Below are positions 3,556 through 47,978 of a DNA stretch of 64,000 nt, piece by piece. The notes under the pieces are model-generated. The model saw nothing but the letters and a program-made list of their open reading frames with translations. It made no database searches and had not been told where the DNA came from. Source of the DNA: a virus (lineage: Duplodnaviria > Caudoviricetes); the IMG/VR virus record IMGVR_UViG_2786546892_000017; one strand, written 5' to 3'. The position numbers and the translations under genes are program-made. Numbering within the stretch: the first letter of the stretch is position 1; each line of letters opens with the position of its first letter.

Positions 3556-3959
3556 GGGGGTGCGATCCTCCCCCGGAACGCCGTCATGGACCCATACGCC
3601 AACGGGGTCGCCGTCCCTAGCGGGTCAATCGTGTTGAGGGACGGGTTGTAGATGTTGAGTTGGTACGTCAGCACGACGCACGTCTGCCCAGCCGCCAAGA
3701 GCCCACCTGTCTGGATGCCCCACGTCGTGGCTTGCGCGACCGTCCAGTTAATCGCCCCCGTCGATCCGAGGGTCGCGATGGTCGGCGGGTCTGTTTCGGT
3801 CGACAGCGTGAATACGGTGCCACCGCCGCACGGGGCGATCGCCGTGAGGGTCGCCTTCCACCCCGTCAGGTCGATAGCATTGCCGTTCGGGTCGACGTAA
3901 ATAACGCCGTCCTCGTACGTCCCGCCGCAAACGAACGAAGTGTCATACTCGACGGCCAC
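3552..3959 (-). CDS. baseplate/tail-fibre adaptor-like protein (BppU N-terminal-like)
   Basis: GAGG RBS and GTG at 3959; DPNGNAIDLTGW motif; the longer 4670 ORF extension is judged spurious. Confidence 0.55.
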   Translation of the reverse strand: MAVEYDTSFVCGGTYEDGVIYVDPNGNAIDLTGWKATLTAIAPCGGGTVFTLSTETDPPTIATLGSTGAINWTVAQATTWGIQTGGLLAAGQTCVVLTYQLNIYNPSLNTIDPLGTATPLAYGSMTAFRGRIAPP

Positions 3960-3984
3960 GGGCAACACCTCAGTTTGTGCCGGG

Positions 3985-4008
3985 AACGTGCCGCCCGTTC
4001 GGGAACTA
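3985..4008 (-). promoter_or_regulatory. class II promoter (tail fibre operon)
   Basis: TAGTTCCC-N10-CACGTT. Confidence 0.8.
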
Positions 4009-4710
4009 CGCCGCCACCAACCGCCCCTCCTCCTCCACGTCAGCCGTCGAAGACGCGGCGCGACGATACACCAGCGGGGCGATCGGCTCGAATAGCCCCA
4101 GCCGGCGCCACACCGCGTAATGAGCCAATGCCGCTTCCTTGGAAATGAAGAGGCTGCACGGCACCGGCTGGACCGCGCGGGAATACCGCCCGTGCTCCCC
4201 CCGCGGGTGGTCCAACGGCTGATACCCCCGAGAGACGGGCGGCAGTACGACTTGCGGCACCCCCCAGACATGAGCCACCAGCCGGAAGCCCCGCTTCGCC
4301 AGAACCTTCCGGCCCCGCTCATTGCAAACCACAACATCCGGGTTACCCCGCACCCGTTGAATCTCGTAGGTGCAGATCTCCCGGCCCCGATACACGGCCA
4401 CCCAGTTCGGCCCGTAGTGATACCGGCACCAAAGGACGAGGGCATTGACGGCCGCGATAACGCTGGGGTAAGTGCCGAACTTCTTCTTGGTGAAAGGGTC
4501 GGCCACGCGGAAGGTGGTGCCCTCCGGACGCCGGTAGATGTGGTGGTATCCGATGTCCGCAATGGGATCTGAGTTGCGGAACTCGTCCCGCTCGGCCTGC
4601 GTGATGCGTGCGTTGCCTGAGTGAGCCAATGAATACGACGACACGTCCGCACCCCCGTGATAGAATTCACGTGAGGCGGTTGCGTTGGGCCGGGGGAACT
4701 TGTCCGGCAA
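4006..4710 (-). CDS. putative DNA-binding protein, AP2-like N-terminal region
   Basis: HIYRRPEGTTFRV...KKFGTYPSVIAAVNAL resembles the AP2 beta-sheet plus G.y.s..A helix; similar to 56230..56826. Confidence 0.45.
   Translation of the reverse strand: MPDKFPRPNATASREFYHGGADVSSYSLAHSGNARITQAERDEFRNSDPIADIGYHHIYRRPEGTTFRVADPFTKKKFGTYPSVIAAVNALVLWCRYHYGPNWVAVYRGREICTYEIQRVRGNPDVVVCNERGRKVLAKRGFRLVAHVWGVPQVVLPPVSRGYQPLDHPRGEHGRYSRAVQPVPCSLFISKEAALAHYAVWRRLGLFEPIAPLVYRRAASSTADVEEEGRLVAA
4611..4622 (-). promoter_or_regulatory. class I box without -10
   Basis: ACTCAGGCAACG inside gene 4006..4710, no TAnnnT at +8. Confidence 0.5.
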
Positions 4711-4743
4711 AGACTCTCCCCCGGCCTCTCTTCTTGTCCCGTG

Positions 4744-8454: not shown

Positions 8455-10458
8455 CTAGCTGCATCCGGTCATCATTTGGCACGCGGTCCGCGTGGGGTAT
8501 ATGCCACCACCCACCGGCTGACAGACCCCCAACACGCAATTCCAGCCGATGCCACCGCTACTCGTGCTGCTCGTTGTTCCGTCCGCGCAGACTGCCTGGC
8601 AATCGAGGCTCGTCGCGTAGGGGCCGCCACCGGGGGTAGCCCCGGTAGGGCACAAACCGCCGACGAGGGTGGCGCAGAAGTCCGGGGACGGGCAGCAGTA
8701 ATACCCCGTCCCCGTGCTGGTACTGGTCGTCGTGGTCGTCGTCGTTGAAGTCGTGGTGCTGGTCGTCGTGCTGGTGGTCGTCGCGGGGGCAGTGCTGGTG
8801 CTGGATGTCGTGCTGGTGGTACTCGTCGTCGTACCGGGCAAGCACGGGGACGCGACGCACAGCGCTACGGTGGAGTAAGTCATCCCGGTGTTGATGTCGA
8901 TTGCGCCCGGGTAGTACATGTAGAGATCGGCCAAGCTGATGTGGCACTCGGCAAACGGACCCGAAACGGCCGACCCGTTGTACAGATAAAACGTGTAGCA
9001 TGTGTACGGCGGTGACGTACTGGTACTCGTCGTCGTGCTGGTCGTCGTCCCGGGCGGCGTACTGGTCGACGGATTCACGCACGGTGTAATAGCCCAGTCG
9101 CACGGGCCGGTAGGAGATCGATCCGGGACGCCGCAGACGCAAACGATGCCGGCGCCACTGCACGTTCCACTCACCACGCCATCGCACGTCGTTACCGGCA
9201 CGGGCAGGCACGAGCCGCTTATCTGGGCCCACCCGCCCAGCCCGTTGGGGCCCATAACACAAGTGCCACAGCAGATACACGGAGCGGGCGGTGGCGGCGG
9301 AACAGGTGTACTCGTACTGATAGGGCCGCAATACGGAGGGGTGTACGATCCGCCGGAGATGCAAGCCGTCGTCACCGCGGTAACGCACCCACCGGGCGAC
9401 ACCGGAGGCGGGCACGGCGGCCACGGGCAATCGCACCCTGTCCCGCACGCGAGTGTCTTTAGGTACTCCCCTGAACCGTTGTCCGTGAAAAGGCAGTAGT
9501 TTGGATTGCACCCGGGCGTACTGGTGCTGGTTGTGGTGGTGGTGGTGGTGTACGGCGGGGCCTGAAACTCCCAATAATACGGCTCGTCCGGCGCCGCAAT
9601 GACCAACGTCGGCGACACGTACCCCGCCCCGCCGGCCCCCAATACCAGAGTGGCCACCTTGCCACCCGCCACGGTTGCGGTGATCACCGCACCGGCACCG
9701 GCTGGGTCCGACACCGTCACCTGCGGGGAGACCGTGTAGCCACCAGTCCCGGGGTCGGTCAGCGTGACGGTCGAAATGCTCCCGCCGGAATTCGCGACCG
9801 TGCCTTGGGCCGTCGTCTGCCGATTCGTCGGGCTGGCCCAGAACCGCGCGTTAACCTTGCCGTGGGTGTCGATTACGGGGATCAGACCTGTCACCGGATC
9901 AGGCACGGGAACAGCGTTCCAGACCTGGACCGGATCGGATGTGTCCTGCCAGGTCGGGGCAGTGGCGGCCGTCACTAATTCTTGCGGCTGCCAACTATAA
10001 AGGAACCCACCGGAAGACGACGTGGAGCCCGTCACCCGCCCCCACATGCTGGCTTGCAGGATACTGAATTCCCACATGCCCGATTGCGTCGGCGACTTCC
10101 AGAACCACCCGTATAAGTTGCCCGGTTTGTCGTCAGTGAGCGTGTCGGTCGGGAACGGATCGCCCTGTACGGGGAACGACGAGTTGACCACCTCGTCCTG
10201 CGAATCGTCATCAATGAACGTGCCGTCCGCCTGCATCACCTGCGGCTGGTAGCTGTACACCTTCTGGGCTCCGGGGCCCGCCGCCTTCCCCGTCAATCTC
10301 CCCCACTGCCCATCGAGCATGTTGGGCAGCTGGATCGACCTCGCCCCGTTCGGACCTGGCACCTCCGAGAACGGCGCGGGGAACCGCAACCCCTCGACGG
10401 CCCGGAGGCGACGGTCGAGGGCGTCCAGGCGGGCACGGTCGGCTGCTGAGTCTGCCAT
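8455..10458 (-). CDS. Cys-rich, Thr-repeat virion (tail tip-like) protein
   Basis: likely start MADSAADR at 10458, 6 nt after a class II -10; poly-Thr/Ser linkers separate Cys-rich modules. Confidence 0.65.
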   Translation of the reverse strand: MADSAADRARLDALDRRLRAVEGLRFPAPFSEVPGPNGARSIQLPNMLDGQWGRLTGKAAGPGAQKVYSYQPQVMQADGTFIDDDSQDEVVNSSFPVQGDPFPTDTLTDDKPGNLYGWFWKSPTQSGMWEFSILQASMWGRVTGSTSSSGGFLYSWQPQELVTAATAPTWQDTSDPVQVWNAVPVPDPVTGLIPVIDTHGKVNARFWASPTNRQTTAQGTVANSGGSISTVTLTDPGTGGYTVSPQVTVSDPAGAGAVITATVAGGKVATLVLGAGGAGYVSPTLVIAAPDEPYYWEFQAPPYTTTTTTTSTSTPGCNPNYCLFTDNGSGEYLKTLACGTGCDCPWPPCPPPVSPGGCVTAVTTACISGGSYTPPYCGPISTSTPVPPPPPAPCICCGTCVMGPNGLGGWAQISGSCLPVPVTTCDGVVSGTCSGAGIVCVCGVPDRSPTGPCDWAITPCVNPSTSTPPGTTTSTTTSTSTSPPYTCYTFYLYNGSAVSGPFAECHISLADLYMYYPGAIDINTGMTYSTVALCVASPCLPGTTTSTTSTTSSTSTAPATTTSTTTSTTTSTTTTTTTSTSTGTGYYCCPSPDFCATLVGGLCPTGATPGGGPYATSLDCQAVCADGTTSSTSSGGIGWNCVLGVCQPVGGGIYPTRTACQMMTGCS

Positions 10459-10464
10459 AGGGGG

Positions 10465-10488
10465 AATGTGGGGTCCGCGGGGGAACAC
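10465..10488 (-). promoter_or_regulatory. class II promoter variant
   Basis: GTGTTCCC-N10-CACATT-N6-ATG. Confidence 0.7.
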
Positions 10489-10495
10489 TGTGAGC

Positions 10496-10521
10496 ATCCT
10501 AACGAGGTCCGTTGCCTGAGT
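10496..10521 (-). promoter_or_regulatory. class I promoter
   Basis: ACTCAGGCAACG-N8-TAGGAT. Confidence 0.75.
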
Positions 10522-10525
10522 GAGA

Positions 10526-17437: not shown

Positions 17438-19594
17438 TCACCGCCGCCCCACGATGTGCCTATCAAGCATTTCCCGGGCAGCCACCCCCACAGCACCACC
17501 CGTCGCTGCGGAGACGACGCCACTGACGACCGAGCCGCCTGTACCGCCGATCGCACGGCCCAACGCCGTGGCCAAGGGCTCGATGTATTTGCCTTCGACA
17601 AAATAGTCTCGTAATTCTTTGATCCGTACACCTATTTCCGCGGTGGTGGAAGCTATCTTGACCTCCGGCTTCTCGCCGCCAGCTTGTCCAATCCCGAAAC
17701 TTGACTCTCTGGCCTTGCGAATAACGTCATCGACAGATCCCGTCGAAACATTCCGAACGCCCTTACCCTCACTCGCCCCCTTCGTGTCGGGCGTTTCAAC
17801 ACTCTTGATGCCGAAGAATGCGTTCACGGAGTCGACAAGGTACTTGATGCCGTCTGCCACGGCTTTCACGAATCGCGCGAACGTCGAGGCGGCGCCCAGG
17901 ACGATGTTCTTCAGCAGGTTGAAGGTCGGGGCGAGTGCGTCCCCGATCGAGCTGACCAGCGGGCCGACGGAGTTGGCCAAGGCGCTGAGCGTGTCGCCGA
18001 TCGAGTCGAATGCGTCTCCCAAGGCGACCACCGATGGCTTGATCACGGCAATGATGCCGTCGAACACGCCCTTGACTATGCCGACGATTGACGTAAAGGC
18101 ATTGGCTACGCCGGAAATGATCCGCATCGCGATTCGCAGCGGAGCGGTCAGGGCGTTGACAAAAACCGATTGCATGTACGCGACGACCGGCTGGGCGACC
18201 GACATGATAGTATCGAATGCCGTCTTCATGGGAGACAAGAGGGCGGTGACGACATCCCCGATCGCCGTGACGACTGCCGATAGTACGTCAAAGACCACGG
18301 AAAGAGGGGCGAGGAGCATCGTCACAATTGGGGCCAGTGAAGCCAGAACGGACACAATCGGTTTGATGAGAGAGAGAACCGACAGGCTGAATTTCTGGGC
18401 CGCGACTCCGACCGTGATGAGCGTCGGGAGAATACTGCCGATGGCCGGGGCGATACTCTCGATCACGTTGACGAACAGGCTGATGGCGGTATCCACGTTC
18501 TTCAGGACCGCCCCGGCGCCGGTGGTCGCGATCTGAGTGAGCGTGTCGATGATGGGCGTGATGGCGGTGACGACGCGAGTGAACCCCGCCCCGAGTGCGT
18601 CGAGGACGACTTTCATCACCCCGGACAGTTTGCTGAAGATGGGTTGGAGTTCGGCCAGCGGTTTGGTTGCGGCCGCCATCACTCCCAATCCAACGGCAGC
18701 CCCCGCGATGCCGCCCAACAAAACCGAGAGTCCGCCCGTTGCGGTGCTAACAACTGATGAGAATACGCCAGTTACGGCGACAAGGGCGCCCATCCCCGTG
18801 GCCGCAGCCGCGAGTGCGGCCACCAACGCCTTGCCCTTTGGTGAAAGCGAGGCCAGTGAATCCGCCACGGCGCGCACAAGGGCAGTCGCGGAACCCATCA
18901 CGGGTAGCAACGCCTCGCCTATCGACGCGCGCAGGTCCAGCACAGCGAATTCAAACCCCTTCACGGCGGTCGGCGAAAACGCCGCGACGTAAGACGCGAT
19001 GTTGCTTTGGATGGAGCCAGTTAGCGAGTTGAGCCCGTTCGTGATCCCGCTGAAAAGTTGGGGCGCCCGTCCGAGCCCGGTTGTGAACTTCGAGTATTGG
19101 GTCGATACAACTCCGAGACCTTTTTGGAGCTGCGCCAGGGTGCCGGTTTGGGCTTTCACTTCGGCGTTGGCCTTGGTTCCTCCGGCCGTCAGTTTCTGCG
19201 TGTTGGCGACCAGCATCGCCATTTGTACGTTCGCAGGTTGCAATGCGGCGGCGATCGGCGTGACGTTCGCCAGCAGCTTCGCCACAGGGGGCGGGGACGA
19301 TTGGTTTGCTCCGGACCCAGAGGGAGTCGCACCCGATTGTGTTTGCGACCCGGTGCCCAGGCTCGGCGCCGCCTTGCCGACGTTGGCGAAGAAATTCGAG
19401 ATGGCCGATGTCAATTTGGCCAAAGGGTTCAAATTAGCAGCCGCGGACATGAGTTTGCCTAGCCCGTTGGCGAGCTGGACTATCCGCACATCGAGCGGGG
19501 TGGTGAGTCCCGCTAAAGGGTTCTTTGTCGACGACTGGCTCGGCGCAGGAGACTTCGGCTGGTTCGGTTTCGGTTGGCTTGGCAGCGGGGGCAT
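17438..19594 (-). CDS. tape measure protein
   Basis: 718 aa A/V/L/I-rich amphipathic helical repeats following tail tube and chaperones. Confidence 0.85.
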   Translation of the reverse strand: MPPLPSQPKPNQPKSPAPSQSSTKNPLAGLTTPLDVRIVQLANGLGKLMSAAANLNPLAKLTSAISNFFANVGKAAPSLGTGSQTQSGATPSGSGANQSSPPPVAKLLANVTPIAAALQPANVQMAMLVANTQKLTAGGTKANAEVKAQTGTLAQLQKGLGVVSTQYSKFTTGLGRAPQLFSGITNGLNSLTGSIQSNIASYVAAFSPTAVKGFEFAVLDLRASIGEALLPVMGSATALVRAVADSLASLSPKGKALVAALAAAATGMGALVAVTGVFSSVVSTATGGLSVLLGGIAGAAVGLGVMAAATKPLAELQPIFSKLSGVMKVVLDALGAGFTRVVTAITPIIDTLTQIATTGAGAVLKNVDTAISLFVNVIESIAPAIGSILPTLITVGVAAQKFSLSVLSLIKPIVSVLASLAPIVTMLLAPLSVVFDVLSAVVTAIGDVVTALLSPMKTAFDTIMSVAQPVVAYMQSVFVNALTAPLRIAMRIISGVANAFTSIVGIVKGVFDGIIAVIKPSVVALGDAFDSIGDTLSALANSVGPLVSSIGDALAPTFNLLKNIVLGAASTFARFVKAVADGIKYLVDSVNAFFGIKSVETPDTKGASEGKGVRNVSTGSVDDVIRKARESSFGIGQAGGEKPEVKIASTTAEIGVRIKELRDYFVEGKYIEPLATALGRAIGGTGGSVVSGVVSAATGGAVGVAAREMLDRHIVGRR

Positions 19595-19632
19595 AAACCA
19601 ATCTCCGACACGTTACGCGGTACTACCCGGTG

Positions 19633-19656
19633 AACGTGTCGGAGAAAGGGGAACCG
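19633..19656 (-). promoter_or_regulatory. class II promoter variant (tape measure)
   Basis: CGGTTCCC-N10-CACGTT. Confidence 0.65.
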
Positions 19657-19668
19657 TCTGTATCGCGG

Positions 19669-20241
19669 CTATTCGCTCGCGGGTTCGTCGTAGTTCTTTT
19701 CGGCCGTCTCGATGGCGATGCGAATATCTTCGGGGTCTGCTTTGATGGCGGTGCCCAGTTCGTTGAACAGATGGGGCACGATGGCTTTCATGGCGGAGCG
19801 CAACCCCGGCGGATTGTCGGCCGCCATGCCTACCACGTCTTCGTAGGTCATTTTCGGGTGGTTGGCTTGAAACAGTGACAGGACGTACAGGATGACTCCG
19901 GCCTCGCGATTCTTGCCGTTCCGGTATTCCACCCACAGAGGGCGACCGGGCTTCTGTTCCCCCATCATCATGCGGCGGGAAAGTTGGTCGACCTTCTCGT
20001 CGTATTTAGCCTGGTCGACGAACCCCGCCGCCAATTGGCCTCGGATGGCCCCGATTTCTTGCTTGATGAGCAGATCTTCAAACCGTTTGGAAGCGGCGCC
20101 GCCCGGTTGCCCCATTTGGTAGGTTTCGCCGTTCCACTCGACCGTTGCGAGCGGCGAGACGATTTTTTCGGCGGAACCTGTTAGCGCATGAATCTGGTCG
20201 TCAGCCACAAGATACCCTCGCGTGCTTGCTGTCGGTAACAT
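19669..20241 (-). CDS. tail assembly chaperone (probable GTG start near 20208)
   Basis: position before tape measure; paralogous to N-half of 20267..21094. Confidence 0.6.
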   Translation of the reverse strand: MLPTASTRGYLVADDQIHALTGSAEKIVSPLATVEWNGETYQMGQPGGAASKRFEDLLIKQEIGAIRGQLAAGFVDQAKYDEKVDQLSRRMMMGEQKPGRPLWVEYRNGKNREAGVILYVLSLFQANHPKMTYEDVVGMAADNPPGLRSAMKAIVPHLFNELGTAIKADPEDIRIAIETAEKNYDEPASE

Positions 20242-20245
20242 CTGG

Positions 20246-20269
20246 AAGGTGTCAGTAAACAGGGAACTA
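20246..20269 (-). promoter_or_regulatory. class II promoter
   Basis: TAGTTCCC-N10-CACCTT. Confidence 0.8.
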
Positions 20270-21094
20270 ACTGGTCACAGGAACCGGCCCGTAGGCAGCA
20301 ATCCATTTCTCGGTGTAATCAGCATGACACTTCTCAGCGTCCGCCACCTTCCAGCCATCCTTCATAAGTCCATTGACCATATCCCGCTTGGGAACGTAGG
20401 CTTCGGACTCATCGGGTCGACCAGGTTCCATCAGTGGCGGCAACCCCTTCCGATCTCGCTCAATTTGTTCGGCCCGCTTGCGGTTCGACCGGATGTATTG
20501 ATGTTCGATCTGGTAGTCCGTCAACGTGGCGTATTCGGACGGGTGCCAGGCGTAAGGCTCCAGGCAAAACATTTCGTAGAGATCGAGCGGGTTGAAGCGA
20601 TATGCGCGGGCAACGGCTCCGGGTGGCATCGCGTCTGTTTCGCTACTTTGCTTCGCAACGTCCGAATGAGGGATGAGGCAAGCAATTGCCAGCCGCACGT
20701 CCACCCGACAATCCGCACAGATCTCCACAGCATCAGCGACCGATAAATCCGGATGACGGTCGGTAAGAAGCGACCACACGAACAAAACGTCGCCGACCTG
20801 CGAACAATCCCCGGACGAATATCGTTCCCAAAGCGGACCGCCCGTCCGATGGTCACCAGATTCCACGCGGGCGATACACGCCTCAATCTTTTCGTCGTGT
20901 ATCGCCCGCGAAATCCAGCCGTCCCGAAGCTGTTGTTTAACCAACCGTTTTTCCGCTTCAACAACTGCGATTTCAAATCGTGCTTTTGCCGCTTGGGTCG
21001 GGTGGCCAACGTGGCAGACGACCCCACGCCACTCAATAGTGGGACATGGGCCAGCATTGCCCAAAGACTGGAGGATAGATGGGATACGATTCAT
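20267..21094 (-). CDS. tail assembly chaperone, long (G-T-like) form
   Basis: N-half aligns with 19669..20241; C-half W.P.EYATLTDYQI typical of gpT-like extension. Confidence 0.55.
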   Translation of the reverse strand: MNRIPSILQSLGNAGPCPTIEWRGVVCHVGHPTQAAKARFEIAVVEAEKRLVKQQLRDGWISRAIHDEKIEACIARVESGDHRTGGPLWERYSSGDCSQVGDVLFVWSLLTDRHPDLSVADAVEICADCRVDVRLAIACLIPHSDVAKQSSETDAMPPGAVARAYRFNPLDLYEMFCLEPYAWHPSEYATLTDYQIEHQYIRSNRKRAEQIERDRKGLPPLMEPGRPDESEAYVPKRDMVNGLMKDGWKVADAEKCHADYTEKWIAAYGPVPVTS

Positions 21095-21649: not shown

Positions 21650-22165
21650 TTAGTGGACGCCCGCGAACACGACGGTGACGACCGCCGCGTTGGATGAGTC
21701 GTTGTTCGTGATTCGCACGGTGTCCGATGTGCCGCTCGCCACGGTGAACCCGGCCGCACTCCACCCGGAGAGCGGGGGGCCGCCCGAGTTAATGCTCCAG
21801 GTGTTGCCAACGGCCCCGAAGTTCAACGCGATGGGATGGGTGGGGCCGGTGCCGCCGATCGTGATGCTGGACGCCCCGCCGGCCGCGAGGATGATCGTGT
21901 ACCCTTTGACCGTGGACAGCCCGGCGACGGTGGCGCCGAACATGTCCGTCAGCGACCCGCTCAGCGTGATGTCCTGGGTGCCGCTGGCCGCGATCGTGTA
22001 CGTGATCGGGACGATGGTGTTCATCTGCCCGGACGAGGTGCCGAACGCCAGAGTCGAACTGCCCGACTGCGTGTTGGCCGACGTCTGATTCGGGAGAAAC
22101 GCGGTGCCGGCCGCAGTGCCGTTGATGCCGACGCTGCCCGATTGGTTAAATGTCCCGCCGATCAT
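21650..22165 (-). CDS. virion structural protein
   Basis: G/S/T-rich beta protein in tail cluster, class II promoter. Confidence 0.55.
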   Translation of the reverse strand: MIGGTFNQSGSVGINGTAAGTAFLPNQTSANTQSGSSTLAFGTSSGQMNTIVPITYTIAASGTQDITLSGSLTDMFGATVAGLSTVKGYTIILAAGGASSITIGGTGPTHPIALNFGAVGNTWSINSGGPPLSGWSAAGFTVASGTSDTVRITNNDSSNAAVVTVVFAGVH

Positions 22166-22191
22166 TCTTGGGCACCTCTGTGTGTGCCCCG

Positions 22192-22215
22192 AACGTGCCG
22201 CCGAGATGGGAACTA
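22192..22215 (-). promoter_or_regulatory. class II promoter
   Basis: TAGTTCCC-N10-CACGTT. Confidence 0.8.
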
Positions 22216-23635: not shown

Positions 23636-23705
23636 ATCCTACCCGCCCCGTTGCCTGAGTCGTAATCCCGGCCGCCGTCACTCAGGCAACGCGCCCAGTT
23701 AGGAT
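23636..23705. promoter_or_regulatory. back-to-back pair of class I promoters
   Basis: - box-N7-TAGGAT (23636..23660) and + box-N8-TAGGAT (23680..23705). Confidence 0.8.
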
Positions 23706-25348: not shown

Positions 25349-25467
25349 GATTCTCCTTCACATAAATAAGGTCTGTTCAGGCCGGCGTTCGGCTTACGGT
25401 GCAGAACAGCATACACCTAGGACTTCCGCCCCTTCGGACGGGACGGGCGGCGGTGGGAAAACCGGAA

Positions 25468-25510
25468 ACACCTGCCGGCTCACCTTAATGAGAACCCGGC
25501 AGGTGTTGTT
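25468..25510. terminator. stem-loop, probable terminator
   Basis: AACACCTGCCGG ... CCGGCAGGTGTT inverted repeat. Confidence 0.55.
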
Positions 25511-26062: not shown

Positions 26063-26559
26063 CAGAACTGGCCAGATGCCGCCGCGATCAAGCCGAGTGT
26101 CAGGAGGTGAAACGTGTTGTCCACAACGATGACGGACCACGGCGACATTCCAACGGGCGGAAGCGATGCGAATACCGTTTGCCCGCTGACGTTCCGCATC
26201 CACCTACCCGCGAGACGGAAACGATCGATAGGCCAGTGAACCGCGAAACACACCAGTAAACCCCACCACGGCATCCACCAGAGGGAGCAGGCGAACACGG
26301 CCAGCGTGTACAGGCAGCAGTGAACGGTGCAGGCGAGGTGCCCACGAAGGCTGGTCGCCCGCTGTCCTGAGTAGGCATCCATTGCTGCGTTTCGGTCTAG
26401 CAATTTTCGTGAATAAGCGGGCAAATCGAACGGGTCCGCATCGACAGCCCAAGTGGGCTTGCGAGGACAGAGCGGGTTCGTCTTGTTCCCCGCCATCCAG
26501 TCATTCTGAAAAATGTAATCACCGAGCATATGCCCAACGATCAACCAGAACCCGACCAT
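26062..26559 (-). CDS. DUF3307-like membrane protein
   Basis: GHMLGDYIFQNDWMA..K; HCCLY; HWPID; VDNTFH. Confidence 0.8.
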   Translation of the reverse strand: MVGFWLIVGHMLGDYIFQNDWMAGNKTNPLCPRKPTWAVDADPFDLPAYSRKLLDRNAAMDAYSGQRATSLRGHLACTVHCCLYTLAVFACSLWWMPWWGLLVCFAVHWPIDRFRLAGRWMRNVSGQTVFASLPPVGMSPWSVIVVDNTFHLLTLGLIAAASGQF

Positions 26560-26598
26560 GAAATGCCCTCGCGTCAGTGATTCTCACGACCCGAGAGC

Positions 26599-26624
26599 AT
26601 CCTACCGCCCCGCGTTGCCTGACT
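26599..26624 (-). promoter_or_regulatory. class I promoter
   Basis: AGTCAGGCAACG-N8-TAGGAT. Confidence 0.8.
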
Positions 26625-26844
26625 CACAACCCGGCTCAACATCCCGTCGATACAGGTGATCTATCAGCGAATCCGCCGCTTCATCCGCGGATTCTTCGGT
26701 GGGCGACAGACCCCACCCTACCACCGTGTCCGCCTGCCTACGGCCAAAAACGGCCCAATAGTACAGGCTCGACGGGTCGCAGTCGTCCATCCGGAAGACA
26801 CGCTTGGAATACGCAGCCACAGCACACCCCTTCAGGATGCGACC

Positions 26845-28446: not shown

Positions 28447-29910
28447 TTAGATCAGGCCTTGGCTACCGATGACGTTGGTCAGCCAGAGAAAAGCTTCGGG
28501 GTACTCGAACCCGACGTCTCCGTACATCGTTCCTTTGACGATGTACTGACCGTTCAAAAACGTGAACCCGTCGTGGCCTTGGGTGAACATCAGGGCGCCG
28601 TAGGTCGCCATGATGGCGTGGTTCCACATCCCGTAGAAGGCGTCGGAGAGGTTCGTGCCAGACCCCTTGGTCCGCGCCCCGTTGATGTTCGTGGACTGGA
28701 CTACCCGCCGACCCCGCCACTGCTGGGGGCCGCCGTCCGAGAACCGGCGGAGCAGGTCGACCAGCGGCCCGGCGCCGTCCCCGGCGGTCACAGCGTCGGC
28801 CCGGACGCCGAAGGCGGAGGCGAGGGCCGTGGGCCGCATGATCCACGTACCCTTGGTCGCGTCGAGGTTGAACGACCGCTCCTCGATCAGAACGGGGAGC
28901 AAGTCGCCATACTGCGGTAGAAGGGTGTTCCCGTTCGCCCCGATCCCCTTGCCGCTCGGGTAAGCGGTCTCGACGTTGATTACGGCCGCCGCATATTCGG
29001 CCGATGTCAGACCGGCAGGGATACTCGTCCCCCCGGTCCCGTAAAACGCGAATGCGTCGGCCTTCAGCCCGAGGGTGATGCCTAAATCGTTTTGGGCGAT
29101 CGTGTCGATGGTCCCCGAGGTGTAGTTGGTCGCTTCCTCCGAGATGTACATCGCCCCGCTAATCTTCTTCGCCGTCAAGGTCATCTGGCCGGTCCCGACC
29201 GTCGTGGCCGGGGTGGTCACGCCTTCGCCGAGTGCCGAGGCGACGGTCGGCCGGGTCAGACGGGGGCGCACGTACCGCCCTGACGGGGGAAGAGTCATCG
29301 ACTGGGCACCCGCAGCAAGGAAGGCCGCTTGCGGGCGGATCAAGGGAATCACTTCCCCTTGGACCGGCGGGGCCACCAACGACCCGCCGAGATTATCAAT
29401 GAACGCCGATTGGCCGGTCGCTTGGGTCGCGGACTTCCGGATGATGCCGCGGCGGGCCAGCCATTCGGCTTCTTCCGGGTCGTAGCTGCCGCCGGTGCGA
29501 ACGGCCGCGTCCTGTAAGACGGCCTTGGCGAACTTGCCGTCGTCGGTTTCCGCGACGTGGTCAAACCCGTCCCACCGGAGAGGGAGCCACTTCGCCCCGG
29601 CCGGGGCGCCGACCAGCCCTTGCCCGGTGGCGTGGAGGGCCTTGGAGAAACGGTCGATGGTGTCCATCTCGAACTTGGCGGCGGAAACGTCGTTCCGCGC
29701 GAGTCCGTTGATGGCGAAGGACGTCATCGAGAACCGCTTGGAGTCCGGGTTATTGGTCCCTGAGTGCCCCTTGGTGAACCGGGCGTTACCCGGACCGGCG
29801 CCGGGGGCCGGGCGGTCCTCCATCTCGCGGAGTTTCCTCTCGGCGGACTCCGCCTTTTCTTCAGCTTTCTTGACGCGGCTGATCAGTTCCGCCGCAGTGT
29901 ACTCGGCCAT
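28447..29910 (-). CDS. major capsid protein (HK97 fold)
   Basis: GGSLVAP, EG....T....LTAKKI....ISEE, YGTG....PAGL; N-terminal coiled-coil delta-like domain. Confidence 0.92.
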   Translation of the reverse strand: MAEYTAAELISRVKKAEEKAESAERKLREMEDRPAPGAGPGNARFTKGHSGTNNPDSKRFSMTSFAINGLARNDVSAAKFEMDTIDRFSKALHATGQGLVGAPAGAKWLPLRWDGFDHVAETDDGKFAKAVLQDAAVRTGGSYDPEEAEWLARRGIIRKSATQATGQSAFIDNLGGSLVAPPVQGEVIPLIRPQAAFLAAGAQSMTLPPSGRYVRPRLTRPTVASALGEGVTTPATTVGTGQMTLTAKKISGAMYISEEATNYTSGTIDTIAQNDLGITLGLKADAFAFYGTGGTSIPAGLTSAEYAAAVINVETAYPSGKGIGANGNTLLPQYGDLLPVLIEERSFNLDATKGTWIMRPTALASAFGVRADAVTAGDGAGPLVDLLRRFSDGGPQQWRGRRVVQSTNINGARTKGSGTNLSDAFYGMWNHAIMATYGALMFTQGHDGFTFLNGQYIVKGTMYGDVGFEYPEAFLWLTNVIGSQGLI

Positions 29911-31674: not shown

Positions 31675-31705
31675 CGCCCGGGTGTCTACCGTAGACACCC
31701 GGGCG
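31675..31705. repeat. 31-bp palindrome (15-bp arms), probable terminator/operator
   Basis: CGCCCGGGTGTCTAC-C-GTAGACACCCGGGCG between TIGR02996 gene and head promoter. Confidence 0.65.
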
Positions 31706-34616: not shown

Positions 34617-37073
34617 TTAGCCCTTGTACGCCGCCAAATCTTTTCCCTGACTCGGCATCATGAAATTGTACATCCGCCCGTCCTCGTGGATCGCCCCCCG
34701 CTTTAAGTCGTGGTCCTTGGCCATGTGGACCTCGCTCAGCTTGTGCAACTCCAAGTGGCGGTCCTTGTTAAGTTGGTACATGGCATTCTGCACGTCGTTG
34801 ACGGACGGCACGGTCTGCCCGTTGGCCTCCGCGTCCTGTCGAACCTGACTGATGATCCGGTGCAGAGGAATCATGCCGGACCGGTGTTCCTCGAACATAT
34901 GCTGGGTTTCGTAGGCGTCTTTGATGGCTGCCGCGTGCTTCGCGGCCAGTTGCTTCCGGTGGCCCACGTCGGGATTGATCGGGGTGTGGTAGTCGCGGCC
35001 GTGCTTGAACAGGTAGCTGCCCTCTTTGGGGTCGACGTGAACCTGCTCGGCCCCCGCGGGCACGCTACCGGAGGGCAGACCGGCCGACGGCTTGGCAGCC
35101 TCTGGCTTCGGGGCGGCAGGGGGCTTGGCTTCAGGGGTGGCAGACTTCGGCTGTGCCTGAGTCACTGGCTCGCCCTTGGGTGCAGACACCCCTTCGCCGG
35201 TGGCCGCGGCCCGCTTCGCCGCTTGCTCCCGCTGGTGATCCTCGGCCCGGCGCCCCGTGTGGTCCTTGTTCTGCCTTTCGTGGTAGCCGCCCGTCTCCGG
35301 GACGTTGATCAAGTGAAAATGCGTGTTCCCATGTCTGATCTCGGACCGATCTACAAAATCCGGGTGGTGGAGCTGCGGCAAATCGGCGCGAGATAGTTCG
35401 ACCCCTTGCCCGCGGCCACCGATTGATTCGACCAATTTCTTCTTGAACACTTCCGGCGTCAGACTCGGATCCTCCTTGTGGAAGTGGTCATACATGTCCG
35501 AGATAAACACCTTGTTCCCGAACCCGTGCGGGAAGTCCTTGGCCGCCTGGTTCACAGCCGCCGCAAATTCCGCCGTGGGCATTGCTGCCACCCGGCCTGC
35601 CTTGGTCGGTGCAGATTCAGGGGATGGAGCGGCTTCCTCCTGTTTCGCTTGCTCGGATTCGTGGGCGGCGAAAGCGGCCTCCGCCTTGGCCTTCAGTGCC
35701 TTGATGCGAGCGGTCTCGGCCTTGGTCGGCTTGCGCCCTTCGGCGAACGCCTGGTCGTTGATGCGAGACGACTCCCGACCGTGTTCGCGGTCGGCCTTTT
35801 GCCAATCGCCGAAGGTGTCGGTGGGCGTAGCCGGCGCCGGTTCGCCCGGCGGGGGCGCGGCGGCCGGCGTTGGGGCTTCCGCCGCAGGTGTGGGCGGGGG
35901 CTCGGGAGGGGTGGCGGGGGGCGACGCAGATGCGGGGGCTTCCGGCTGTGCCGCTCCCTTCGCCTCGATTTCCTTCGGGACCGGTGCCGCCTGAGCCTTC
36001 GCCCCCACGTGGGCCAACACCGCCCTCGCCGCCAACTTCCTCGCCACCTCCGCCTTCCCTCCACTCGCCCTCAGTCCCAGCCGACGCTTCACCTCGTGCA
36101 GATCCTTCGCCGAAACCCGCGTCGTCAGGGTGTGGGCCAATTCACGCACCGCCTCCGGGTCCGTCGCCAGTCGGGTCGCCAGACCCTTGACGTGTTCGTG
36201 GGCTTCGTCGGCGGTCATCCGCTCGTGGGAGTAGTGCCGCAGGTTGGAACGGGTCGGAGCTGCGATCCGCTCCGCCAACTTGCGGGACACTTCGGCCTTT
36301 GTCCCGGACGCCTTCACCCCGAGTTGCTTCTTGATCTCGGCAAGTTCGGCATGAGTATGCCCGGTGAACGCATCCGCCAACGCCCGCACCGTCTCTGGGG
36401 TCGTTAGACCCTGGTCGGCTTTGAGCTTGTGGACGAGTGCCACGGTCTCGGTCACGGTACGGGGCTTCGACTGCTTGCCTGCCGGCTTCTCCGGACTGGC
36501 CCCGCTTGTCGCTACCTGGCCCGTCTCCTGCGTCTGGTCCCCTACCACCCGCTTCAACGCCCGGTGCCCGCTGGGATGGTCACCCCGGCCCCGTTCTCGA
36601 AACTCACGGGCGCGGTCGTATTCCTCCGCGTCGTGGTCGTCAGGGGAGTAAGGTTGCTCGCGAGACTCGTCGACGGGCTCGCGGGCAGCAGCCTCATCGA
36701 GTCGCCGGTCCTGTTCGACCTTGCGGGCCTTGACCGAGTCGTCATCGCCGTTGCCTTTCGTCTTCCCGGTTGCGTCGTTGGCATGCCCCTGAGCGATCTT
36801 CGCCTTTTCTTCCGGTGTCGCTTTATCTAACACCTCGGATGGGATAAATTGGCCACCAACGTAATCCTTGCCCCCGACCGTTACGCCGCCCTTGGGTGCG
36901 TGCGTTGCGGCTTTCCGGATCAGCATCCCCGCCCCGGGCATGGTGACGGTCGCCAGTACGTCCGCCGACACCCCCGCCGTGACGAGCAGTTCCGTGACCC
37001 GCTTCCGCTCGGACAGGGTGCCCTCGCCGAAGGTTTTGCGGAGGATGCTCTTGGTTAACTTTTGGTCGGTCAC
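34617..37073 (-). CDS. large head-associated (putative internal/ejected) protein
   Basis: 818 aa between portal and protease; HAPKGGVT.GG..Y.GGQFIP motif; two LG.KASG.KAEV.RKLA repeats; class II promoter. Confidence 0.6.
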   Translation of the reverse strand: MTDQKLTKSILRKTFGEGTLSERKRVTELLVTAGVSADVLATVTMPGAGMLIRKAATHAPKGGVTVGGKDYVGGQFIPSEVLDKATPEEKAKIAQGHANDATGKTKGNGDDDSVKARKVEQDRRLDEAAAREPVDESREQPYSPDDHDAEEYDRAREFRERGRGDHPSGHRALKRVVGDQTQETGQVATSGASPEKPAGKQSKPRTVTETVALVHKLKADQGLTTPETVRALADAFTGHTHAELAEIKKQLGVKASGTKAEVSRKLAERIAAPTRSNLRHYSHERMTADEAHEHVKGLATRLATDPEAVRELAHTLTTRVSAKDLHEVKRRLGLRASGGKAEVARKLAARAVLAHVGAKAQAAPVPKEIEAKGAAQPEAPASASPPATPPEPPPTPAAEAPTPAAAPPPGEPAPATPTDTFGDWQKADREHGRESSRINDQAFAEGRKPTKAETARIKALKAKAEAAFAAHESEQAKQEEAAPSPESAPTKAGRVAAMPTAEFAAAVNQAAKDFPHGFGNKVFISDMYDHFHKEDPSLTPEVFKKKLVESIGGRGQGVELSRADLPQLHHPDFVDRSEIRHGNTHFHLINVPETGGYHERQNKDHTGRRAEDHQREQAAKRAAATGEGVSAPKGEPVTQAQPKSATPEAKPPAAPKPEAAKPSAGLPSGSVPAGAEQVHVDPKEGSYLFKHGRDYHTPINPDVGHRKQLAAKHAAAIKDAYETQHMFEEHRSGMIPLHRIISQVRQDAEANGQTVPSVNDVQNAMYQLNKDRHLELHKLSEVHMAKDHDLKRGAIHEDGRMYNFMMPSQGKDLAAYKG

Positions 37074-37102
37074 GGTGGCGGCACTCCGGGGAAGATGCCG
37101 GG

Positions 37103-37126
37103 AAGGTGCCGCGAAAGTGGGAACTA
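37103..37126 (-). promoter_or_regulatory. class II promoter
   Basis: TAGTTCCC-N10-CACCTT. Confidence 0.8.
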
Positions 37127-38248: not shown

Positions 38249-38274
38249 AGTCTAGCCGACCGCGTTGCCTGACT
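38249..38274 (-). promoter_or_regulatory. class I promoter (Clp-N gene)
   Basis: AGTCAGGCAACG-N8-TAGACT. Confidence 0.8.
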
Positions 38275-41200
38275 CACACCGTGACCACATCGGCCGCCGA
38301 CAACCCCTTGACGAACCTCAACGCGGCCCGCCTTATCCTTCGCCGCTTCGCCTTCATCTTCGGACCTGCCGCCGGAGGCACCAGCGTCCCGCCCACCGCG
38401 TTCAAGTTCGCAGACATGCCCCCGATAGCCTTTTGCATGTGAGCGGCCCCGGAGAGCAAGATGGGCGTCTCCTGGCCGTCCGCGTCCGAGAAGTGCAAAT
38501 GATGGGTCACTGCCTCCTCGTTGATCGTCCCCATCCGGCGGGCGTGTTCCGCCCCCAACCCCGGTTGGACATAGGCGATGGTCGCGTGCGGGACGTACTT
38601 CGCTCGGGTGTTCGTATGGGGGAGCAACTTCCGTAGTTTCCGGTTCAACCGCCTGATCCCGGCACCGTGAACTTCAGCGTACAGAATGTCGTGCTCCGGG
38701 TGGCTAAACACCCGAACTCGCCCGAGCCGGTATTTCACGGGCCTCGAAGTTCCCCCTACGGCCCATCGCACGTCTTCCGGGTCGTCCGTGTGCAGTCCGT
38801 ATAGCGTCGTGATGTGCGGGGAATCCTCCCGGCCGTCATCGAACGCGAGATGGTCGTCAGGGATGGAATCGGCGAGGGCCGTGATGTGGGACGCCAGGTG
38901 CCCCGGGAGTTTCACGTGGGTCGATGACAACGGCCGGTCGTCCGCGTCCATCCCCTTCTTCATGCGGGGCGGCAACGATCCCTTCCCGGCCGGGTTGCTG
39001 GGGCGGGGCGGCCAGTTCGCGGCCCCGGCCGGCTTGCCGTGCTTCGGCACCGGCACCCGCTTCGCCCGCACCGTTACGCCACCCTTGCTCGCCGAAACCG
39101 GACCGCCGGCCTTGATCTGTTGAACCACCTGGCCGGCCAAACTCTGGATCAGATTCGACAACAGAGCATGCGCGTGCGACTCGGAGATCCCGAGTTTCGC
39201 AGCCACCCGCCCCGCGTGCTTCGACGCCTCGCTCGCCGCCCAGACCGCCGGCTTGTGGCTCAAAATCTTGGCGTGCCGCGGGGTCAGCCGCTGGGCGACG
39301 GGCAACGCGCGAGACGCGACGGCCGGGGCCACATGCTTCGCCAAGGGCGCCACGGTCGGCGGGAGCGGGGCTGGCGTAAACTCCTTGGTCGCGTCGGCGT
39401 TGGGGGGCGGCGTTCGGCTGGCGGGTTGCGCAGGCGTCGGGCCGCGGCCAGCAATCAGCGGCGCCGCAGGTGCGGCTGGCGACGGTTTCTTTGTCGGTGT
39501 GTGGTGGAACGCGGCGTCGATGGCCTCCGAGTTATCCCTCACTGGTACCGAAGATTGTCGCGGGGGCGGCGTCGGGGCCGAAGGCGTCGGCTTGGCAGCG
39601 GATTGAGACGCAGGGGCAGGCTGCCCGGCCAACACCCGATGCTTCTCGGCCGCTTCCACGTGGCCCTTGACCGCCCCTTCGGCCCCGCTCACACCGGACT
39701 TCTCTTTAGCCGTCCGCTCGTGAACGGCGGCTGCGTCTTGGTGAATCTTTGGATCGGTCTTAGCCCCGGGCGGAATGAACTCGTACCCTTCTTTCCCCGA
39801 TTTGTCCCACAGGAGAGCCCCAGCCCCCCACTGGTTGCCGTTCTTGTCTCGCCCATCGCTGTTGATTACGACTTTCTTGTGCCCGTCATCGGTGTGGAGG
39901 ACTACCGTGTAGCCCTCCTTCGATTTTTGACGGACCAGATCTTCGACATGCTTCGTCGCCGCCTTCATATCGACGTAGCCGTTGCTGCCCGTGAATTGCT
40001 TCAACAACGAACCTTTGGTGATCGGTGCCTGGTGCGGCGTAGCAGTCGATGGCGACGGCTTGTCACCTTCCTCTGGCTCCACATGACCGGCCTGTGCCCG
40101 TTGCAGCTTCTCCGCAAGGTCGTTGCGATCGGACAATTTTTGAAAGTGTGCCTCACCGTGGGCGCCCCACTCTTCTTTTGGTTTGCGCACCCACCCCTTC
40201 ATTGACTCGTCAATGCCCTTATCGGCTACGGCCAGTTTTGACTTCAGGTCGGCCACGTGCGGCGAGTCTGGCTGAGCCCCGTGGGCCGCGATCGCCGCGT
40301 CCAGTTTCTTCCGTTGGCCTGGGTCTGTCACCTTGGCCCGAAGGGCTGCTGCGGCTTTCGGGTCTTTGGCCGCTGCTGCTACTTCGTCTTTATCGACGAA
40401 CTCCCCATGATCATCTCGCGGATGCTGGTCTTCGAACCCTTTCTGGAACGGATCGCCCGGCTTGATCCCCAACGCCTGCAACACCTCATCGGTGATGAGA
40501 CTGCGGGGGTCGCCAGTATCGGGGAGAGGTTCCTCGCCCTGTGCGTCCAACTCGGGGACACCGTTGGATCGATCGGGGGCCACAACGGGCGGGGCCGGTG
40601 GCGTGGGGGCGGCAGGTTGCCCGGGTGCGGGTTGTGGCTGGGTTGCGGCCTGGGCCTTGGCTTGGAGTCCGGCCACATACACCGACGGGGGGACCTCCCC
40701 TCCTTCCACGGGGTCCAGATCGATCATCCCCCGCAGTTCGTTCGTCATGATATAGCCAGACGACGCACCAGCATTCATTCGAGCCTGCTGGATATCGTGG
40801 TCGTCAATCTGTGGCGGGTCGATTTTTACGACGAGATGGTCTTTCTCCCAAAAACGCTTCGCCAGATGCTTGGTCAGTTGCTCGCCAATGTCCTTCACGA
40901 CCGGCCCGAGCCCGAGCGTGAAGAACTGCTTGAGTTTTGCGTAGAACGCCGCGTAGCTGTCCGCGGGCTTCAGCCCCGCCACGGTTGGGTCGGCGAGCCA
41001 CAGGGCACAGACCATGCCCATCATCCGGTCCCACCCGGACCCGTAGTCCATGTCACGGGCGCCAGGAGTGAGTAAGTTCGTAATCTTCACATCTTCGTCG
41101 CCAGCCAGCCCGATAATCCGATTTCCGCGAGCGCCGCTATACCGCTGCGAGACCTGAGCCAGTGCCGCCTCAACCGCCTCCTGGTTCGCCCCCGGCACAC

Positions 41201-41999
41201 TGATAATCGTGTCAGCCGACAGTCCGTTGTCCATCGACCGCTTCCAACTATCCGCGATCGCGTCGATCGTGTCGATCATCCTCGCCCCGGCTTGCATCTT
41301 GGGCCACGTCGCCCACTGATACAGCGGGTGAATCTCGTGGTCCCAGATGGCATCGCGCCGGTCGATCGTCCACGGACCACCCATCCCGAACGGTCCCACG
41401 ATCCCCGTCACGTAGTTCGTGACGTACCACCCACCGCACGGGTACTGGGTGCCCATCGGGATCTGATTCGTCGTCGGGGCAGGCACGATCCACAGGTCGG
41501 CCGGCGTACCAACCTCGCTCGGTCGCCAGGGCACAATCACTTCGCCCACGAGCTGCTTTTGGAGCGTCCACGACGAGAGAAATTGGCTGATCGTCTCGAC
41601 TTCGTTGGGGTCTTGCATCAGCCGGACGAGTTTGTGCTCGTCCGGGGCCGGCTGGTACTCGTGGTCCTTCGCCCCCGGCGCCCCAAACGCCTTCTTGAAC
41701 GGCACCCTCGAGGCCGTCCCCATCCCCTTCGGCCGCTGCTTCCGCTTCTGCTCCACCCGGACCGTGCAGCTCCCGACCGCGTGCATCAACGCACGGATAC
41801 AGAGGTACTGGACGTCCTTGTATTTGCTGGCCTGGGTGAGCCGATCAGAGAGTGCCGGCCCCGGGATGTCGCGGCTACGAATCTCCAGGACCGTTGACCG
41901 CGCCTGATTCGTGGCGGGTTGAGGAAGTCGTTGCGTCGGGTCGGGCAGCCCGAGAATGCGGGAGCGGCTGGATTCGGCGGACTGCGTAGTAGGTGCCAT
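38274..41999 (-). CDS. portal protein with long extension and C-terminal 2H phosphoesterase (Acb1/T4 gp57B-like)
   Basis: LMQDPN..ETISQF, RDMDY, MTNELRG..DLDPVEGG portal motifs; SPHITTLYGLH and YVPHATIAY 2H motifs. Confidence 0.85.
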   Translation of the reverse strand: MAPTTQSAESSRSRILGLPDPTQRLPQPATNQARSTVLEIRSRDIPGPALSDRLTQASKYKDVQYLCIRALMHAVGSCTVRVEQKRKQRPKGMGTASRVPFKKAFGAPGAKDHEYQPAPDEHKLVRLMQDPNEVETISQFLSSWTLQKQLVGEVIVPWRPSEVGTPADLWIVPAPTTNQIPMGTQYPCGGWYVTNYVTGIVGPFGMGGPWTIDRRDAIWDHEIHPLYQWATWPKMQAGARMIDTIDAIADSWKRSMDNGLSADTIISVPGANQEAVEAALAQVSQRYSGARGNRIIGLAGDEDVKITNLLTPGARDMDYGSGWDRMMGMVCALWLADPTVAGLKPADSYAAFYAKLKQFFTLGLGPVVKDIGEQLTKHLAKRFWEKDHLVVKIDPPQIDDHDIQQARMNAGASSGYIMTNELRGMIDLDPVEGGEVPPSVYVAGLQAKAQAATQPQPAPGQPAAPTPPAPPVVAPDRSNGVPELDAQGEEPLPDTGDPRSLITDEVLQALGIKPGDPFQKGFEDQHPRDDHGEFVDKDEVAAAAKDPKAAAALRAKVTDPGQRKKLDAAIAAHGAQPDSPHVADLKSKLAVADKGIDESMKGWVRKPKEEWGAHGEAHFQKLSDRNDLAEKLQRAQAGHVEPEEGDKPSPSTATPHQAPITKGSLLKQFTGSNGYVDMKAATKHVEDLVRQKSKEGYTVVLHTDDGHKKVVINSDGRDKNGNQWGAGALLWDKSGKEGYEFIPPGAKTDPKIHQDAAAVHERTAKEKSGVSGAEGAVKGHVEAAEKHRVLAGQPAPASQSAAKPTPSAPTPPPRQSSVPVRDNSEAIDAAFHHTPTKKPSPAAPAAPLIAGRGPTPAQPASRTPPPNADATKEFTPAPLPPTVAPLAKHVAPAVASRALPVAQRLTPRHAKILSHKPAVWAASEASKHAGRVAAKLGISESHAHALLSNLIQSLAGQVVQQIKAGGPVSASKGGVTVRAKRVPVPKHGKPAGAANWPPRPSNPAGKGSLPPRMKKGMDADDRPLSSTHVKLPGHLASHITALADSIPDDHLAFDDGREDSPHITTLYGLHTDDPEDVRWAVGGTSRPVKYRLGRVRVFSHPEHDILYAEVHGAGIRRLNRKLRKLLPHTNTRAKYVPHATIAYVQPGLGAEHARRMGTINEEAVTHHLHFSDADGQETPILLSGAAHMQKAIGGMSANLNAVGGTLVPPAAGPKMKAKRRRIRRAALRFVKGLSAADVVTV

Positions 42000-47908: not shown

Positions 47909-47978
47909 ATCCTACCCGCTCGCGTTGCCTGAGTGATTTCGGGAGCCGCACGAGTCAGGCAACGGGAGGCGGTAGAGT
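47909..47978. promoter_or_regulatory. back-to-back pair of class I promoters
   Basis: - box-N8-TAGGAT (47909..47934) and + box-N8-TAGAGT (47953..47978). Confidence 0.8.

Follow-up and report, generated by a model that had tools for sequence, protein, structure and literature searches.

A predicted RNA hairpin that joins a promoter-like motif to the ribosome-binding site of a prophage tape-measure gene

In a prophage of a planctomycete-like genome, the ribosome-binding site of the tape-measure gene lies in one arm of a perfect inverted repeat, and the other arm contains a promoter-like hexamer. What is this repeat for? The reading placed first here, to which we give slightly less than an even chance, is that the repeat folds as RNA into a hairpin, built into a phage-specific late promoter, (TA)GTTCCC-N10-CACGTT, which conceals the ribosome-binding site.

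The window, which is the whole stretch of 64,000 nucleotides that was analysed, corresponds to C20:163704-227703 of a 12.36-Mb genome in 20 contigs. Most of it is a siphovirus-like prophage with its genes on the minus strand. To judge from a TIGR02996 domain and from the relatives at family level, the host is likely to be a planctomycete of the Gemmataceae. The following genes were identified.

17438..19594, minus strand: tape-measure protein gene, 718 aa, ATG at 19594; 13 PHROG families, 9/13 of them named tail length tape measure protein
28447..29910: capsid gene
38274..41999, minus strand: portal gene, 1241 aa
56848..57540, minus strand: sigma-70-family factor, 230 aa (Sigma70_r4, E 2.7e-8; TIGR02937, 53.3 bits against a cutoff of 42.9)

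The sigma-70-family factor is a candidate recogniser of one of two phage promoter classes, called class I and class II below. The prophage also encodes ThyX, a dCTP-deaminase-like protein and a DNA methylase. The portal protein has at its C-terminus a domain of the 2'-5' RNA ligase superfamily (PF13563, E 5.8e-10), and the product of the gene next to it has two Clp_N repeats. A 343-aa phage protein (52903..53934, minus strand) has the TIGR02996 domain at its N-terminus (E 3.2e-14), and similar N-termini match two places in a prophage region of another genome, G202. A PDB sequence search gave nothing informative on the identity of the genes with hairpins described below, and the AlphaFold model of a 171-aa protein had a pLDDT of 44.3, too low for use. 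No Rfam families and no tRNA were matched.

The tape-measure leader and its promoter-like motif

Reading along the minus strand, the tape-measure leader runs from the stop codon of the upstream gene through 14 nt, GTTCCC, CCT, TCTCCGACACGTT, the loop, AACGTGTCGGAGA and TTGGTTT to the ATG at 19594.

19671..19669, minus strand: stop codon of the upstream gene
19654..19649, minus strand: upstream promoter element GTTCCC, preceded by CG where TA is usual
19645..19633, minus strand: hairpin 5' arm TCTCCGACACGTT; the hexamer CACGTT is 19638..19633, and TCTCC belongs to the promoter spacer
19632..19615, minus strand: hairpin loop of 18 nt, containing a small inner helix
19614..19602, minus strand: hairpin 3' arm AACGTGTCGGAGA, with the Shine-Dalgarno (SD) sequence GGAGA at 19606..19602

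The SD sequence lies 7 nt ahead of the ATG. The arms form 13 perfect Watson-Crick pairs with no G-U pair; if the inner pairs are counted the stem reaches about 18 bp and the loop shrinks to 6 nt. The isolated hairpin has a predicted energy of -28.5 kcal/mol. A 101-nt region around it folds at -41.0 kcal/mol, compared with -26.07 +/- 2.82 for shuffled sequences (z -5.29; 0/200 as stable). An earlier note on this DNA had described a 13-bp inverted repeat at 19602..19645 that joins GGAGA to the spacer and the -10 hexamer, and its coordinates proved exact.

One candidate explanation of the region was rejected. ORF 19613..19936 lies in the -1 frame relative to the upstream gene and ends within the hairpin. 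It was considered as the product of a G/GT tail-chaperone frameshift; a slippery heptamer in the proper register is missing, and the frame translates into Arg-rich sequence without the look of a real protein. A second inverted repeat nearby (20866..20910), with perfect arms of 15 bp and a loop of 15 nt, falls within ORF 20267..21094. This ORF is a rough gene call whose upstream half codes poorly. The gene may be shorter than drawn, and the repeat would then be an intergenic hairpin.

The motif in the tape-measure leader, termed class II, has the form (TA)GTTCCC-N10-CAYNWT. There are 14 copies in the prophage, all on the minus strand, and the spacing of N10 is constant at 14/14 sites aligned on GTTCCC. 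The hexamer is mostly CACNTT, with C as the next base. In relaxed form the motif has 45 matches across the 12.4-Mb genome; between 120 and 280 kb of the contig, 14/14 matches fall at 163031-216091 on the minus strand, one of them 672 nt ahead of the window start. In strict form it occurs 10 times in this genome and as a single match in 2/251 other genomes of the family. The upstream block TAGTTCCC occurs 13 times in the window (11 on the minus strand) where 1.02 are expected. At the 11 minus-strand sites found by this block alone, positions 2 and 6 of the hexamer are A and T in 11/11. The motif is real, phage-specific and promoter-like, as the earlier note had taken it to be.

We infer from these properties that class II is a promoter. 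At 6 sites the ATG of a long ORF lies 6-7 nt past the CAYNWT hexamer with no SD-like motif, and the hexamer followed by a 5'-terminal ATG looks like a -10 element of the sigma-70 family with a leaderless mRNA. The other 7 genes are leadered, and an SD-like motif lies 6-10 nt before the start in 7/7. Site 52388 was left out of these counts: its ATG opens an ORF of only 24 aa, and the start of the next gene is uncertain. A -35 hexamer about 17 bp from the -10 is absent. GTTCCC ends 10 bp before the hexamer at 14/14 sites, so the geometry is atypical for sigma-70; taking TAGTTC as the hexamer gives a spacer of 12 bp. At 9/12 TAGTTCCC sites the TAG of this block doubles as the in-frame stop of the preceding ORF (at least 86 open codons); the sites examined include 4006, 4765, 20267, 22213, 22721, 23391, 42027 and 52388.

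Late genes of Thermus phages are leaderless, and the 6 class II genes with an SD-less ATG 6-7 nt past the hexamer resemble such leaderless late mRNAs. Class II differs in adding a rigid upstream element 10 bp from the hexamer, and in that leaderless and hairpin-bearing genes are mixed in one module. Brock et al. in 2008 reportedly described the recognition of a 5'-terminal AUG by ribosomes. For Deinococcus-Thermus, PMC12340547 speaks of a '-10 region adjacent to ORFs'.

Relatives of the phage were sought in several collections. Megablast of the phage returned no close relative. A homologue of the tape-measure protein was found in 1/200 family genomes, with 35% identity over part of its length. 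Matches to it in IMG/VR were at 21-29% identity only, and the portal had none there. A 275-aa tail protein had no match in genome contigs or IMG/VR. The motif-plus-ATG pattern gave single matches (4 in IMG/VR, 25 in genome contigs and 52 in metagenomes) and no clustered locus. A close relative carrying the tape-measure leader was not found in these searches. The prophage on contig C5 of G202 shows partial synteny; there the tape-measure homologue abuts the upstream ORF, leaving no space for a hairpin.

A distant relative of the phage is present in G234, a fragmented metagenome-assembled genome. Its portal is 31% and its sigma factor 33% identical, and no homologue of the tape-measure protein or of the 171-aa protein was detectable. 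This phage has the motif CAGGTTCCC-N10-CAYRAT, separated from the ATG by 6 nt at 4 contigs and by 8 nt at 1. The pattern count was 11, against 1 in a reversed control, and 5/5 clear sites are leaderless.

G234 leaderless sites: L004:786; L119:2377; L120:4933, minus strand; L121:549; L122:1001

Elsewhere the G234-type pattern gave 70 + 5 single matches; only four of these loci (L144, L167, L169, L196) come from one record set, and there was no other cluster. The class II architecture, with its leaderless ATGs, is kept in the distant phage of G234. As the sole evidence from comparison, this supports the promoter and leaderless readings and says nothing on hairpins.

Opening of the ribosome-binding site in read-through and promoter-initiated RNAs

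At the leaderless sites the ATG lies 6-7 nt past the hexamer. By the same geometry, transcription from the tape-measure copy is predicted to start at about 19626-19625, within the hairpin loop. RNA from upstream promoters on the same strand would hold both arms, the -10-like hexamer with part of the spacer forming the 5' arm and the tape-measure SD sequence lying in the 3' arm, and its ribosome site would be locked. RNA begun at the embedded promoter would start in the loop, lack the 5' arm and be translatable. Synthesis of the tape-measure protein would thereby be coupled to the firing of its own promoter. We infer both the read-through RNA across the leader and the effect of the hairpin on translation.

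The energy needed to open the initiation region (-15 to +4) was computed for three RNAs at each leadered site. These were the read-through RNA, the RNA starting 7 nt past the hexamer, and the read-through RNA with its upstream part dinucleotide-shuffled (200 shuffles). Values are given below in kcal/mol, followed by the number of shuffles that reach the read-through value.

19594 (tape measure): read-through 23.7, promoter-initiated 10.2; shuffled 11.4 +/- 1.9; 0/200
22165: read-through 17.5, promoter-initiated 5.0; shuffled 8.8 +/- 2.5; 1/200
37073: read-through 17.9, promoter-initiated 4.3; shuffled 9.6 +/- 2.5; 1/200
3959: read-through 12.6, promoter-initiated 9.4; shuffled 11.6 +/- 2.6; 64/200
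4710: read-through 20.5, promoter-initiated 25.3; shuffled 19.2 +/- 2.8; 72/200
20208: read-through 9.1, promoter-initiated 10.3; shuffled 11.6 +/- 1.9; 196/200
Class II site outside the window: read-through 12.5, promoter-initiated 8.1; shuffled 12.0 +/- 2.5; 74/200

The hairpin and its stability, its overlap with the motif and the difference in occlusion between the read-through and promoter-initiated RNAs are computed results. The read-through RNA exceeds the promoter-initiated RNA by at least 12 kcal/mol at 3/6 leadered class II genes in the window, compared with 0/60 other gene starts and 4/300 random positions. For the tape-measure gene the release holds wherever the start is placed within -12 to +4 of the predicted one. 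At 22165 it requires that the start lie at most 2 nt upstream of the predicted one, or beyond that in the downstream direction. In silico, then, a class II start does free the tape-measure ribosome-binding site, as had been proposed, and any start past the hexamer removes the 5' arm; the start itself is deduced from geometry. The earlier note's interpretation is thus supported in part; as a general rule for leadered class II genes it is not borne out, with promoter-dependent occlusion at only 3/7 of them and none at the other 4.

The hairpins at the other leadered genes are as follows.

37078..37112, minus strand: second hairpin, GCGGCAC/GTGCCGC plus TCC/GGA, beside the SD sequence GGAG of the 37073 gene
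22170..22189, minus strand: third hairpin, GGGCAC/GTGCCC, overlapping the SD sequence GAGGTG; gene ATG at 22165
3958..3998, minus strand: helix ACGGGCGGCAC/GUGUUGCCCGU before the GTG at 3959, 11 bp with 2 G-U pairs

Five sites in all had been listed as sharing the layout, and 3/5 hold up, one of them very strongly. At the 37073 gene (818 aa, GTG start), GCGGCAC is made of spacer and the beginning of the hexamer CACCTT (37108..37103). The pairing listed at 37079..37112 is present, the fold has a z of -2.42 (2/200 shuffles as stable), and the occlusion stands above the shuffled-upstream controls. The layout listed at 22166..22207 is present, and the site is occluded beyond its controls; its 5' arm is not the -10. 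In the minimum-free-energy structure that arm, GGGCAC, is 22189..22184, between the hexamer CACGTT (22197..22192) and the predicted start at about 22185. The helix at 3958..4000 does form in the minimum-free-energy structure; it is no more stable than shuffled sequence (z +0.42, 127/200), and its occlusion is matched by 64/200 controls. The fifth site, 20211..20253, fails, with 196/200 shuffles occluding equally or more. The 4710 gene, which has a TTG start, presents a separate case. Here the SD sequence GGGGGAG pairs with part of the gene's coding region in a strong hairpin (4672-4730, minus strand, GGCCGGGGGAGAG...TTCCCCCGGCC), which locks it wherever transcription starts.

Chimeras were made in which the upstream part of the tape-measure RNA was replaced by those of the other 13 motif sites. 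These gave a mean of 10.8 and a maximum of 16.7 kcal/mol, against the native 23.7. The pairing is therefore site-specific and not a by-product of the motif. At 22165 the chimeras reached at most 15.5 against the native 17.5 kcal/mol, and at 37073 two promoters sharing GGCGGCAC occlude too. An automatic complementarity between -10 and SD was considered, as CACCTTCC resembles an anti-SD sequence, and was rejected: the CACCTTCC chimeras fail to occlude the tape-measure, 22165 and 37073 sites.

The precedent for such an arrangement is phage T4. According to section 29 of PMC3014915, long transcripts of e, soc, 49 and I-TevI have the SD sequence and/or start codon in base pairs, and a late promoter lies within the DNA encoding the 5' strand, so that late transcripts lack this strand and are translated. 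The earlier note's appeal to e and soc agrees with that section. In silico, the geometry of the tape-measure, 37073 and 22165 sites is like that of the four T4 genes, and it is plausible that the tape-measure hairpin is a new example of the e/soc type of gate. The differences are several. The present case is in an unrelated siphovirus-like prophage of a planctomycete. Its promoter is the two-block GTTCCC-N10-CAYNWT, not the TATAAATA of T4, and its factor is probably an ordinary sigma-70-family protein rather than gp55/gp33/gp45. Its targets are structural genes, the tape-measure gene included, and at least one promoter of the other class, class I, has the same layout. The gate is here a prediction from sequence and folding.

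Other readings of the tape-measure hairpin

The hairpin could instead be mainly an intrinsic terminator or insulator that ends the tail-gene transcripts. The embedded promoter would then re-initiate transcription, and the overlap with the SD sequence would reflect tight packing. The structure has a GC-rich 13-bp stem (about 18 bp with the inner pairs) followed by UUGGUUUAU, which has 5 T in its first 8 nt. It also resembles two probable terminators, strong gene-end hairpins upstream of class II promoters with similar tails.

31675-31705: probable terminator, tail CGUUAUUUCCC
25467-25507: probable terminator, 12-bp stem, 17-nt loop, tail UCCGGUUUUCCC

The GC-rich stem and partly U-rich tail are those of rho-independent terminators between phage late units. 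In contrast to these, the tape-measure stem overlaps a promoter and the SD sequence of the next gene, its loop is 18 nt long and its tail is broken by GG. A simple terminator scan, which has a loop limit of 8, did not pick it. The SD sequence pairs with TCTCC in the unconstrained spacer, which is needless for a pure terminator. Moreover, the 22165 and 37073 hairpins occlude likewise without a U tract, which makes a common role in RNA occlusion more economical. We regard the terminator as a serious rival, though rather unlikely to be the main role. Termination and occlusion are compatible, and the hairpin may stop read-through besides hiding the SD sequence, or in place of hiding it.

The remaining readings are less likely than occlusion or termination. 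In the first, the hairpin lowers translation on all transcripts to suit a low copy number of the protein, and the promoter copy is weak or inactive. The tape-measure copy has CGGTTCCC in place of TAGTTCCC, that is, it is without the TA, and it may for this reason be weak or dead. The 4710 gene is pertinent too; its lock by its own coding region is independent of the promoter, and the phage therefore does use constitutive occlusion of a ribosome-binding site. Against this, the tape-measure copy keeps GTTCCC, the N10 spacing and the hexamer whole. A structure of -28.5 kcal/mol over the SD sequence would almost silence an essential gene unless some transcript lacks the 5' arm. A ribosome terminating at the upstream stop (19669) would be too distant, 23 nt ahead of the stem, to open it. 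A permanent brake on translation is thus an unlikely function.

In the second, the repeat works as DNA, as an operator whose regulator covers the -10 and the first transcribed bases, or else it is a place where read-through RNA is processed by an enzyme of the RNase III type. The arms are perfectly Watson-Crick paired without G-U, so DNA and RNA readings fit them equally, and the extended stem of about 18 bp nears the size of an RNase III substrate. The tape-measure arm has no other mismatch-free copy in the window, however, and the Rfam search gave no family. The analogous repeats elsewhere differ in sequence and have in common only the pairing with the SD region, which favours RNA pairing over a single DNA-binding protein. 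The helix at 3958..3998 includes two G-U pairs, possible on the sense RNA only. We consider an operator or processing site quite improbable. A functionless repeat, arisen by chance or by a recent local duplication-inversion, is the least probable of all and hardly credible; it fits with the lack of conservation evidence, and is opposed by the stability of the fold against its 200 shuffles and by the enrichment of promoter-dependent occlusion over other gene starts and random positions.

Class I promoters and a possible wider design

Silencing of read-through RNA by the tape-measure hairpin presupposes promoters upstream. A second motif, class I, has the form TCAGGCAAC-N8-9-TAnn[A/G]T. It occurs 18 times in the window where 1.8 are expected, and 17/18 matches genome-wide lie inside this prophage. 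In both promoter classes the upstream element is only 9-10 bp from the -10 hexamer (8-9 bp in class I, whose hexamer is near-consensus).

Class I sites on the minus strand, examples: 54790, 47932, 38272, 26622, 23658, 17389, 10519
Class I sites on the plus strand, examples: 11788, 23682, 47955

Class I sites are interspersed with class II on the same strand; the one at 38272 precedes the 37073 gene, and the one at 23658 precedes the tail module. Read-through from another promoter class into the genes with hairpins is therefore plausible. The scans for repeats and terminators showed no terminator-like hairpin from 23658 to 19645. It may be that most RNA arriving from upstream is made by other class II promoters, and a temporal reading of the gate would then be weaker.

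The occlusion layout is not a class II speciality, as it appears at one class I promoter at least.

26559..26622, minus strand: class I promoter TCAGGCAAC-N9-TAGGAT, whose -10 and discriminator pair with the SD/start region of the 26559 gene

Here the occlusion is 19.4, compared with 9.7 +/- 2.3 for shuffled sequence (0/200). A second class I site, 26868, occludes the gene at 26820 beyond most controls (2/200); the start codon of that gene is uncertain. At four further class I sites the occlusion was not significant.

Class I sites show two other arrangements. In the inverted repeats 47912-47975 (21-nt arms at 47912/47955) and 23649-23691, class I motifs face each other; these regions resemble divergent promoter/operator regions and are possibly a genetic switch. 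At 10458-10522 on the minus strand a class I promoter immediately precedes one of class II. RNA from the class I promoter is predicted to begin at an in-frame GTG (10488) that lies 10 codons ahead of the leaderless class II ATG at 10458. With leaderless mRNAs starting at both positions, a single protein could be made in versions of 677 aa and 667 aa.

The two classes together suggest a wider design, which we put forward as doubtful. The first cistron behind each phage promoter would be translated only from RNA started at that promoter, by one of two routes. The first would be a leaderless mRNA (6 class II sites, with leaderless-like starts at 3 class I sites). In the second the core promoter would double as the arm that pairs with the ribosome-binding site (3 class II and 1-2 class I sites). 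At least one of the promoter classes would be read with the phage sigma factor. If this is true, read-through RNA from about 30 closely spaced promoters on the same strand would be largely silent for promoter-proximal genes, and protein dosage would be uncoupled from transcript overlap.

The literature searched has little on how genes are regulated in phages of Planctomycetota, and nothing turned up on their promoters or translational control. The value of this locus lies in its unusual host, in its two phage-specific promoter classes and in the possible generality of the design. The 14 class II and 18 class I phage-specific promoters, together with the candidate sigma factor, are possible genetic tools for a phylum that is without them. 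Should the occlusion reading of the tape-measure hairpin be correct, a promoter within a hairpin that hides the next ribosome site would have arisen independently of T4. It would have done so in a temperate siphovirus unrelated to T4, whose promoter and sigma factor are of another kind, and before the tape-measure gene, the dosage of which is important.
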